IMG/VR virus record: IMGVR_UViG_2671180283_000006 | Source of the DNA: a virus | Lineage: Duplodnaviria; Heunggongvirae; Uroviricota; Caudoviricetes | Reading direction: 5' to 3' (one strand) | DNA: 23,727 nucleotides | Shown: one piece after another, positions 4,249 to 5,488 of the stretch | Numbering within the stretch: the first letter of the stretch is position 1 | Layout of the letters: each line of letters starts with the position of its first letter | Translations under genes and position numbers: made by a program | The notes under the pieces: generated by a model | Databases searched by the model: none | Told to the model about the DNA's origin: nothing | What the model saw: the letters and a program-made list of their open reading frames with translations, nothing else

Positions 4249-4323
4249 GGTTGCAGGAAATTTAAAATCTGGCGATGAAATTTAATATTAGAAATTCATT
4301 GCCTAGTGAGATTAATAATGGGC

Positions 4324-4365
4324 ATCCCTTTGTGACGATAAGCTTTAACACATTCACAAAGGGAT
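4324..4365. terminator. Perfect 12-bp inverted repeat between convergent genes (possible bidirectional terminator or binding site)
   Basis: atccctttgtga (4324-4335) and tcacaaagggat (4354-4365) with an 18-nt spacer; lies between the Rz stop and the 3' end of the minus-strand gene. T-run is weak on both strands. Confidence 0.35.
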
Positions 4366-4416
4366 ATTTAATATAGGGTGGTTAATTCCCACTTGCTGTG
4401 GTGTTTAGGGGGTAAT

Positions 4417-5109
4417 TCAAATCTTATCTAACTCATTATAGGCTTCGATAATAAAAATTCTGATTTTAATAAGGCATGATTCAATGAAAGGAATTACTTC
4501 ATGGTCATTCCCATGGAATCTTATTTTTTTCTCTTCGGTAATGACTATGTTTAAAGGTACACCATTACCACTTCTTTGTAATTTCCCATTTTCGAAAGTA
4601 AAGTCTTCTAATTTTTTGCCATTGATGTGGTTGTTTTTAAAGAGAATTTTTGCTGAGCTTCCTGCTGTGATTAAACCAAAACCATCTACGCTCACACTTA
4701 GGTCTTTAACAGAACTCTCTTCTCTTAAGGGGATTGGTTGTCTGTGCTTTACTTCATTAGTGAGATTACACATCATTTCCAACCAAGATTCGCCAGTGTG
4801 ATAATCCTGTATAGAAGTAAAAATTTTATATAATGGAGAAGATGATGGTGGGTTTATTTTTAGCGTCTTTGAGAAAAATTTATCAATAAACTCTTTTTTT
4901 CCGTAAGGGAAATATATTTTGGGGCGCTCATCATTACTGCGTGGAGAAATATATTTATCATAGGTATCATTAGCGAGATACTCTAAGGAACTTCGTAAGT
5001 TTTCCAAAATAGCTTTGACTTTTACAGGCTTGATATGCTGTGTCTGTCTCATTATGTCAAGACTTTCTTCAACTTCTTGCAATAAGTCCAACGAGCCTTC
5101 TCTAGACAT
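4417..5109 (-). CDS. Uncharacterised 230-aa cargo (moron) protein, AT-rich, no signal peptide
   Basis: Long minus-strand ORF with ATG at 5109 and AAGGAG about 10 nt upstream; hand-counted 60-nt windows give roughly 23-33% G+C versus about 52% in the terminase; no family recognised by eye. Confidence 0.6.
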   Translation of the reverse strand: MSREGSLDLLQEVEESLDIMRQTQHIKPVKVKAILENLRSSLEYLANDTYDKYISPRSNDERPKIYFPYGKKEFIDKFFSKTLKINPPSSSPLYKIFTSIQDYHTGESWLEMMCNLTNEVKHRQPIPLREESSVKDLSVSVDGFGLITAGSSAKILFKNNHINGKKLEDFTFENGKLQRSGNGVPLNIVITEEKKIRFHGNDHEVIPFIESCLIKIRIFIIEAYNELDKI

Positions 5110-5488
5110 ACAGGTAATTCTCCTTTATGAATTTTCAACATGTTATAACTAATAATATATTTATCATATAACTGTATGAATAAATTGTGAGATTAGTAAT
5201 GCAAGTTTCTATCCATAGTGTTCTCTAAGTACCCGCTTCCATCATGTTGTTACGGACGGTATGGCTAAAACAAAGCACCTGAAGTTAAACGTTCTGAACT
5301 TTATGCTCGTTGAGCATATGAATTATCTGTAACCCGATGCGCTGGTTGTGGTTCACATTGATGGTCGTAATCAGCAGCGGTGGTGCCTGATGGCATGCAA
5401 CTTCTTACTTATAAAACTTCGTATGGAATTGTTGCCATAACGAGCCCAGCTTAGCAGTTTTTAATGGGTCCTCCCGGCAGTGTGTCCT

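Follow-up and report, generated by a model that had tools for sequence, protein, structure and literature searches.

The lysis-to-packaging junction of a Qin/lambda-like Escherichia coli prophage, IMG/VR virus record IMGVR_UViG_2671180283_000006 (hereafter the window, that is, the whole stretch of 23,727 nucleotides (nt) that was analysed), carries a gene whose product, judging from its predicted structure, likely has the fold of the HEPN superfamily. The gene lies on the minus strand, antisense to the late genes, and belongs to a cassette that is very probably a real mobile moron; for its product we infer a defence function. Until now the family was known only as an unnamed PHROG, and standalone HEPN proteins of prophages already have precedents; new here is that a prophage gene of probable HEPN fold has a re-wired motif and a beta module as insert, and lies in an established defence slot. 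The gene and its cassette are:

4417-5109, minus strand: protein-coding gene, an open reading frame (ORF) with ATG start; 230 amino acids (aa), 26.5 kDa, isoelectric point 6.6; member of PHROG 13652
4249-5465, no strand: cassette of 1,217 bp, from the spanin stop codon to the cosQ-proximal sequence; homology with other phages resumes at 5466

A constrained gene of a large family

A sequence-only reading of the window had pointed to this ORF as an AT-rich orphan of no recognised family and as candidate defence or host-modulation cargo. The ORF is present as described, with its ATG start, and the ratio of nonsynonymous to synonymous substitution rates (dN/dS) against homologues at 70-83% identity is 0.05-0.10, because of which it is regarded as a real gene under constraint. 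In near-identical prophages (annotated locus L001) the product is the RefSeq entry WP_023567552.1, a "hypothetical protein". The designation as an orphan had to be given up: the protein matches PHROG 13652 (function unknown) over its full length (E=3.1e-159; its residues 1-230 align to positions 1-230 of the 230-position profile), and an exhaustive profile search retrieved, at E<=0.001, representatives of at least 1,049 clusters (50% identity), of which 521 reach E<=1e-10. Nearly all members are standalone proteins of 220-250 aa; they are encoded in Gammaproteobacteria, Neisseria, Bacteroidota, Deinococcales, Planctomycetota, lineages of the candidate phyla radiation (CPR) and archaea, and also on plasmids of Bacillus pseudomycoides. 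In the Enterobacteriaceae the family is strongly linked to temperate phages.

That no known family would be recognised was foreseen correctly, as neither Pfam nor NCBIfam nor PADLOC-DB v2.0.0 gave a match to the protein at E<=10, and a Pfam scan of 49 diverse members returned noise only. The named relatives are all "hypothetical protein" and none contains a Pfam domain except one probable chimera; domain fusions in longer relatives were uninformative (only sub-threshold matches to DUF6941 and dATP/dGTP-PPHyd). A sequence-profile search of the PDB found only a designed helical protein (E=1.9), Foldseek against the PDB gave nothing below E=0.08, the papillomavirus E2 proteins among its matches being noise (TM-score ~0.19), and a search of BFVD returned one unnamed 275-aa viral protein. 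The accession of the family led to no publication. The PADLOC result does not speak against defence, because the validated prophage defence protein TaiEcA (see below) gives no PADLOC match either.

Across 41 diverse loci, collected with alignment A1 (the diverse alignment A2 was too variable for a locus search), no neighbouring gene recurs. The neighbours are heterogeneous, with housekeeping genes in many loci; others are Phd/YefM and PemK modules, a BrnT toxin, a terminase, a P2 GPA replication protein, a DRT-type reverse transcriptase beside an MzaA-like protein, a restriction endonuclease (REase) domain of the pAgo-associated type, and a MADS-like protein. The toxin-antitoxin (TA) and defence genes beside distant members are at most suggestive of a role in conflict. 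A 781-aa neighbour in Rouxiella, considered as a PARIS match, was dismissed since it is not the PARIS-matching protein. In Neisseria and oral metagenomes (loci L005-L009, L027, L029, L033, L037), a member of 29-33% identity lies in the interval from a gene for an AMP-binding enzyme to one for a 515-aa double-ABC ATPase, downstream of two permease genes, and its stop codon overlaps the ATPase start by 4 bp; from this gene order it appears to be inserted in a yej/opp-like transporter operon. The ABC-ATPase was rejected as a partner, being part of a yej-like operon which is common only to closely related loci.

A mobile cassette in a variable slot

The cassette 4249-5465 is present in 98 of 5,426 complete E. 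coli genomes (1.8%), in each covered to at least 80% at an identity of at least 95%, and it behaves as one block. Parts of the wider region 3600-6300 occur in 2,128 E. coli genomes, the full arrangement in only 44. In viral contigs the cassette is joined to alleles of the small terminase subunit (TerS) of 42% or 99% identity and to alleles of the large subunit (TerL) of 76-100%. The spanin allele of the window (at least 99% identity) occurs in 154 genomes; wherever coordinates were compared, it lies directly beside the cassette. A comparison of the Rz-to-cos interval across related prophages, which the sequence-only reading had proposed, shows that the cargo of the slot varies: prophages with spanins of 87-89% identity carry an SDH-family Clp-fold serine proteinase, a "Fur-regulated protein", or small hypothetical proteins with a tail-fibre fragment in its place. 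The supposition of a moron in a variable cargo slot is thus borne out.

The same junction is occupied by homologues (57-83% protein identity) of Enterobacter prophages, Citrobacter prophages and enterobacterial viral contigs. In about 30 of 41 viral contigs the family gene is antisense to the late genes and lies between spanin or endolysin on one side and HNH/Terminase_4/TerL or DUF1441/TerL on the other; both junction and orientation are kept despite unrelated types of holin, endolysin and terminase. The AT-richness of the gene compared with its neighbours is likewise real. In 200-nt windows the G+C content (GC) is 30-37.5% across 4200-5300 versus 49-58% in the lysis and terminase genes (the earlier figure of 23-33% came from smaller windows); the gene itself has 34% and its flanks 50%. 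The homologous cassettes all have 30-34% GC, mostly within surroundings of 50-55%.

The fixed position at the lysis/packaging junction of many enterobacterial prophages would be expected of a dispensable accessory of the lytic cycle, placed there for its function in lysis timing, packaging or cos-site regulation. Such a role is very improbable: the gene is antisense to the late operon and has promoter-like signals of its own, most related phages lack it and have other genes there, and tblastn with the protein found no match in 50,697 deposited phage genomes; further, family members reside in non-phage contexts in many phyla.

Several observations concern the slot and its other occupants. The gene for the SDH-family Clp-fold serine proteinase fills the spanin-to-terminase slot in two E. 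coli prophages (L003, 5053-5955; L004, 5110-5955) and is accompanied once by the "Fur-regulated protein"; the anti-Tai gene orf64 of phage phi80 is likewise annotated as "putative Fur-regulated protein". In Enterobacter prophages a 485-aa protein (L010, 4455-5912, minus strand) is encoded divergently from the family gene at a distance of 88 bp; homologues of it are found in L075-L077, L082, L084, L087 and L091, and together with a 196-aa protein without assigned function it fills the remainder of the slot. By eye, its N-terminus (…ITTHNR…LPAGALVVVID) looks like that of a family-2 glycosyltransferase; the 485-aa protein has no Pfam match, and PADLOC matched neither this protein nor the alternative slot cargo nor TaiEcA. 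In E. coli PK8566 (NZ_CP080172.1) an IS1 lies within the cassette, the match being in two pieces and about 777 bp longer, with the IS1 transposase annotated; a similar IS1-split match was seen in E. coli 64EVA (NZ_CP138399.1) within the wider region 3600-6300.

Predicted fold and conserved residues

The AlphaFold2 model of the protein (mean predicted local distance difference test score, pLDDT, 88.8) consists of helices 3-23 and 28-53, a loop with short helices at 54-105, a helix 109-122, a beta-rich part 128-198, and a C-terminal helix 205-229. An independent model of a Marinimicrobia member of 27% identity (pLDDT 95.3) has the same topology, with the equivalent strands at 143-210. A hydrophobicity scan and the model revealed neither signal peptide nor transmembrane (TM) segment in the 230-aa protein, in agreement with what had been read from its sequence; the 19-mer of highest hydrophobicity (Kyte-Doolittle 1.66, residues 205-223) belongs to the C-terminal helix, which is buried in the bundle. 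The parts of the gene that matter for the following are:

4744-4761, minus strand: codons of the invariant motif T117-N118-E-V-K121-H122, at the end of helix-3 (109-122)
4966-5016, minus strand: codons of the helix-2 stripe (K32...D48; signature ENLRSxL[ED]Y; helix 28-53)
4516-4728, minus strand: codons of residues 128-198, the beta-rich insert that comes immediately behind the motif and is less conserved than any other part of the family
4501-4521, minus strand: codons of RFHGNDH (residues 197-203), which is not a conserved motif

Conservation was counted in an alignment of 206 family members. In the motif, H122 is found in 206/206, K121 in 205/206, N118 in 196/206 and T117 in 165/206; the residues following Thr in frequency at position 117 are Asn, Val, Ser, Leu and Ala, so that Arg is not among the six commonest. 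Helix 109-122 contains W109-L110 and C114 as further conserved residues. In helix-2 the conserved positions are K32, E36 (185/206), R39 (200/206), S40, L42, [E/D]43, Y44 (194/206), A46 and D48, and the insert following it contains F67-P68 (the proline in 206/206)-Y69-G70 as well as Q101 (205/206). The near-invariance of H122, K121 and Q101 spans members from different phyla which are only 22-30% identical. The beta-rich insert stands apart, with a mean frequency of the top residue of 0.27 versus 0.60-0.62 for helices 2 and 3; on the model it is a candidate recognition or sensor module.

The sequence-only reading had taken RFHGNDH near the C-terminus as a weak hint to an HEPN-type RNase. This is a chance match: R197 is present in 48/206 members, H199 in 68/206 and H203 in 6/206, the latter being Tyr already in an 83%-identical relative, and an R-x(4-6)-H at this position occurs in only 1 of the 49 diverse members. 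The type of fold that was suspected nonetheless survives in the model; it was the motif that was wrong, the conserved one being TNxxKH at 117-122, in which the defining arginine is lacking.

Relation to the HEPN superfamily

Among the best structural matches of the model are HEPN toxins from type VII TA systems, and LsoA. Its parts would map onto the HEPN fold as follows: helix-1 would be residues 3-23; helix-2, with E36, R39, S40, Y44 and D48, residues 28-53; a helical insert with FPYG and Q101 would occupy 54-108; helix-3 would be 109-122, the beta module of about 70 residues would sit in the helix-3/helix-4 loop, and helix-4 would be 205-229. In this arrangement T117-N118-x-x-K121-H122 is in exact register with the R-N-x-x-x-H of the superfamily, with the same N-to-H spacing and the same place at the end of a helix. 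A survey of the superfamily found the residue after the motif Arg to be typically N, D or H, many families to have a conserved acidic residue of helix-2 near the motif (typically Ex3[KR]), and inserts of the helix-2/helix-3 kind to be characteristic (PMC3710099). The motif histidine and the polar residue after the arginine position are both present in the family (the asparagine and histidine counted above), and its helix-2 pair E36 and R39 forms E-x2-R, versus the typical Ex3[KR]. Because of the register of the motif, the beta module after it, the 54-108 insert and the helix-2 pair, the family is interpreted as a divergent HEPN branch without the motif Arg. What separates it from the rest of the superfamily is Thr117 at the Arg position and an invariant Lys before the His; where Csx1 has a beta-hairpin after the motif, the present family has a module of about 70 residues.

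Two results weigh against this assignment. At the position of the motif Arg, Thr is found in 165 of the 206 sequences, and there is no pair of R..H columns anywhere in the alignment in which both residues reach 30%; on this one defining residue strict HEPN membership fails. Further, no described HEPN family was matched in the sequence-profile searches, which covered Pfam, NCBIfam and the PDB for the protein and Pfam for the 49 diverse members. Loss of the arginine has been described, as Parep1/8 keeps the H without the R and has other conserved basic residues elsewhere, and HEPN domains whose catalytic residues are lost serve as binding or regulatory modules (PMC3710099).

Comparison with known prophage systems

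The closest parallel in arrangement is TaiEcA of phage phi80. Tai genes of phages mostly lie upstream of the module for packaging; taiEcA (orf63), which the lysogen expresses, forms a "noncontiguous operon" with the anti-Tai gene orf64 of the late strand, a switch-off by late transcription has been proposed, and the protein acts by blocking tail assembly, not by abortive infection (PMC11364771). According to the phi80 record, PHI80_63 (TaiEcA) lies on the minus strand between Rz and cos and encodes 204 aa (4366-4980 of locus L104). The gene described here has the same layout: one gene on its own, some 200-230 codons long, minus-strand, within the Rz-cos interval, upstream of packaging and within the late operon. 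The likeness does not extend to sequence: homology to TaiEcA was rejected (BLASTP E=35; hhalign probability 0.2%), TaiEcA being the only Tai protein compared and the other 56 Tai sequences lying outside the comparison. A late-strand ORF in the manner of Ati/orf64 is not conserved, since the only such ORF that overlaps the 5′ end of the gene, 5015-5152 (45 aa, starting with TTG), is missing in 5 of the 11 homologous cassettes. TaiEcA itself contains SMRNDLAHNP, which matches the R-N-x-x-x-H motif, and is without a Pfam match; from this stretch of residues Tai itself may be HEPN-like.

The loss of the motif arginine and the action of TaiEcA, a validated occupant of the same slot which blocks tail assembly rather than aborting infection, both speak for a non-catalytic HEPN-like binder. 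Such a protein would block a component of competing phages stoichiometrically, as Tai or Tab do, or serve as sensor or adaptor without nuclease, and the polar stripe that is conserved would serve as a surface for binding or as the interface of an oligomer; the known use of catalytically dead HEPN domains as binding and regulatory modules (PMC3710099) is in accord with this. The extreme conservation of H122, K121 and Q101 among members of 22-30% identity is, however, more typical of catalysis or of the binding of a small ligand, and neither sequence similarity to TaiEcA nor a conserved Ati-like partner is found, all of which makes the binder unlikely.

In function, precedents for an HEPN-like effector are HepS of the Salmonella prophage Gifsy-1 (PMC13043305) and Tha of Staphylococcus aureus prophages (PMC11087260), standalone HEPN proteins without partner genes, which sense phage tail proteins and abort the infection by tRNA cleavage, thus combining sensor and effector in one protein; they are expressed in the lysogen and found from Bacillaceae to Enterobacteriaceae (PMC13043305, PMC11087260). 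HepS has a canonical RX4-6H (R100/H105, with H105 required) and resides at another locus, whereas the present family is without a canonical RX4-6H, and the 230-aa protein did not group with the HepS family by homology. Activation by a tail protein and cleavage of tRNA were demonstrated for HepS and would be hypothetical for the family considered here.

Among the structural matches, the type VII TA toxins and LsoA could also indicate an addiction module, in which an HEPN-like toxin stabilising the prophage would be held in check by a host factor or an antisense RNA, e.g., read-through transcription of the late strand or a small RNA from the 5′ region. The convergence of the gene with late transcription and the Phd, PemK and BrnT modules near distant loci fit such a role. 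However, the protein differs from HepT of HepT/MntA in having no RX4HXY and almost twice the size, through inserts, and no MNT nucleotidyltransferase is adjacent: an MNT antitoxin is encoded neither in the cassette nor recurrently among the 41 loci. No other protein partner and no small ORF on the opposite strand is conserved, the window contains no Rfam element beyond tRNAs, of which the cassette has none, and HepS demonstrates that standalone HEPN defence proteins need no antitoxin (PMC13043305). An addiction module is quite improbable.

Lambda bor is a lysogen-expressed moron between Rz and cos which forms an independent transcription unit; its product is a small lipoprotein of the outer membrane that has a signal peptide, and for lambda, bor and lom alter host physiology through other means. 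Common to bor and the present gene are only the position and the orientation antisense to the late operon, the protein described here being cytoplasmic, 230 aa in length, devoid of signal peptide and TM segment, and HEPN-like in fold. By analogy with bor the gene could be one of lysogenic conversion outside defence, its product processing RNA or binding nucleotides in the lysogen and altering stress tolerance, growth or virulence; the distant homologues among housekeeping genes, in Neisseria within a transporter operon, and the absence of a PADLOC match can be cited for it. The cytoplasmic HEPN-like fold, the occurrence in 1.8% of E. coli genomes, the patchy spread across phyla, the TA and defence neighbours and the linkage to temperate phages of Enterobacteriaceae fit conflict systems better, so that host modulation is decidedly unlikely.

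A proposed mode of action

The reading that we favour, tentatively and at somewhat less than even, is that of a lysogen-expressed standalone HEPN-like effector which protects the lysogen against other phages. It would start from an AT-rich mobile moron set antisense into the lambdoid late operon at the lysis-to-packaging junction. The protein would be made in the lysogen from its own promoter and be kept inactive; the variable beta module would recognise a component of a superinfecting phage, upon which the cluster of H122, K121, N118, R39, Y44 and E36 would act as a metal-independent RNase site (or as a ligand site) and the infection would be aborted. R39 or K121 may stand in for the missing motif arginine. 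When the resident prophage itself turns lytic, convergent Q-antiterminated late transcription might damp the cassette, as was proposed for taiEcA in phi80. In this scheme we infer the expression pattern, the RNase activity, the anti-phage role and the role of the beta module as sensor.

An anti-phage RNase function taken by itself is possible, if doubtful. Somewhat unlikely, when all of its parts are taken jointly, is the most specific version, that of a new single-gene abortive-infection system with a re-wired HEPN site, the Arg having moved to helix-2 (R39) or been replaced by K121, in which the beta module at the active-site loop is an allosteric switch sensing a phage protein and self-immunity comes from convergent late transcription, not from an antitoxin.

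If the protein indeed acts in defence, a single-gene immune protein has been missed by current defence-finding tools, and its spread would be wide, as bacteria, CPR and archaea together provide at least 1,049 clusters; an HEPN active site could then be rebuilt without its signature arginine, and the case for the lambdoid lysis-to-packaging junction as a hotspot of defence, which Tai already makes, would be strengthened. Members are frequent in clinical Enterobacter hormaechei, in Klebsiella and Citrobacter, and in prophages of avian and human E. coli, and could affect host range in phage therapy. Should its role lie elsewhere, it would still be a large and strongly constrained family with what is, by its conserved residues, a probable enzymatic site. 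The candidate is cheap to test, requiring one cassette of 1.2 kb and a few point mutants, for which R197/H203 provide a negative-control pair defined by the alignment.

Expression signals and flanking repeats

Within the cassette, the following elements flank the gene:

5120-5125, minus strand: Shine-Dalgarno sequence AAGGAG, 10 nt upstream of the ATG; a purine-rich equivalent is present in all aligned cassettes
5142-5147, minus strand: -10-like TATAAC in the conserved block TAG[G/T]TATAA[C/G]ATG, about 35 nt upstream of the start codon
5163-5191, minus strand: second candidate sigma-70 promoter, CTCACA-N17-TATGAT (consensus scan, 9/12 matches)
4324-4335/4354-4365, no strand: inverted repeat found by repeat search, perfect over 12 bp, its arms 18 nt apart, at a distance of 52 nt downstream from the stop codon

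The ribosome-binding site of its own that had been ascribed to the gene is the AAGGAG at 5125-5120 (minus strand), a strong one. The promoter-like region fared less uniformly, since the number of sigma-70-like hexamers in it (7) is not above that in shuffles (5.2 +/- 2.3), while the TATAAC block is conserved. The latter emerged when the upstream regions of 10 diverged cassettes were aligned, and is common to several cassettes whose proteins are only 63-71% identical; TATAAC (5147-5142, minus strand) is hence a candidate for the main promoter element and better promoter evidence than the hexamer scan. In the same alignment the CTCACA element was found again in several cassettes.

The perfect 12-bp inverted repeat is found at the 3′ end of the gene, where it had been noted before, and in minus-strand RNA forms a 13-bp hairpin (fold z = -2.33). 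Because of its 18-nt loop and the lack of a U-tract it is not a canonical terminator; it is probably a non-canonical hairpin that marks the transcript end or insulates. It is absent from the Citrobacter cassettes, in which family gene and spanin gene directly adjoin. GAAATTTAA[A/T]AT occurs three times (4257, 4277, 4363), the copies flanking the repeat in the 168-bp spacer from the spanin stop to the stop of the gene; they could be an array for protein binding or just chance matches in AT-rich sequence. At the other end, between the promoter region and the cosQ-proximal sequence, 5200-5465 comprises about 265 bp of intermediate GC (about 45-48%), in which neither an ORF of at least 40 aa on either strand nor an Rfam match was found; this segment moves together with the cassette in 98 of 98 genomes.

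The surrounding locus

The genes and sites bordering the cassette agree with the Rz-to-cos position assigned to it from the start:

3712-4248, plus strand: Rz-like i-spanin gene, last gene of the lysis cassette (ORF and L001 annotation)
3977-4123, plus strand: Rz1-like lipoprotein ORF with LVGC lipobox, embedded in the Rz-like gene
5495-5506, plus strand: approximate cos, sequence GGGCGGGAGCGT; position 1 of the records of phages cdtI and Tritos aligns at 5495
5679-6218, plus strand: gene of the small terminase subunit (DUF1441 family), with which the packaging module begins (L001 annotation)

The placement of cos at about 5495 rests on the deposited genome ends of phages cdtI and Tritos, which align from there; after it follow the DUF1441 small terminase and then TerL. 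Downstream of the Q antiterminator, ARAGORN detected a tRNA cluster at 1663-1972 (plus strand) with CAU (Met/Ile2-type), Lys-UUU, Thr-UGU and Gly-UCC; Rfam at gathering score found 3 of the 4 and missed Lys-UUU at 1740-1816. In strain GPEC657, a near-identical prophage carries tRNA-Ile and tRNA-Arg in their place, and the tRNA set is therefore regarded as variable cargo as well, which may matter if the HEPN-like protein or the defences of competitors target tRNAs.

The gene had also been described as the only long one on the reverse strand of the window, which is right as far as credible genes are concerned. A mechanical ORF of 827 aa (21244-23727, minus strand) does exist on the strand opposite the tail-tip (J-like) gene of 1,002 aa at 20644-23652, and is probably an artefact, a product of few stops in the antisense frame of a GC-rich gene; further, an annotated ORF of 92 aa (2795-3073, minus strand; RefSeq hypothetical protein WP_000370545.1), located between the ydfR-like and lysozyme genes, constitutes a second, short antisense gene of the late region.

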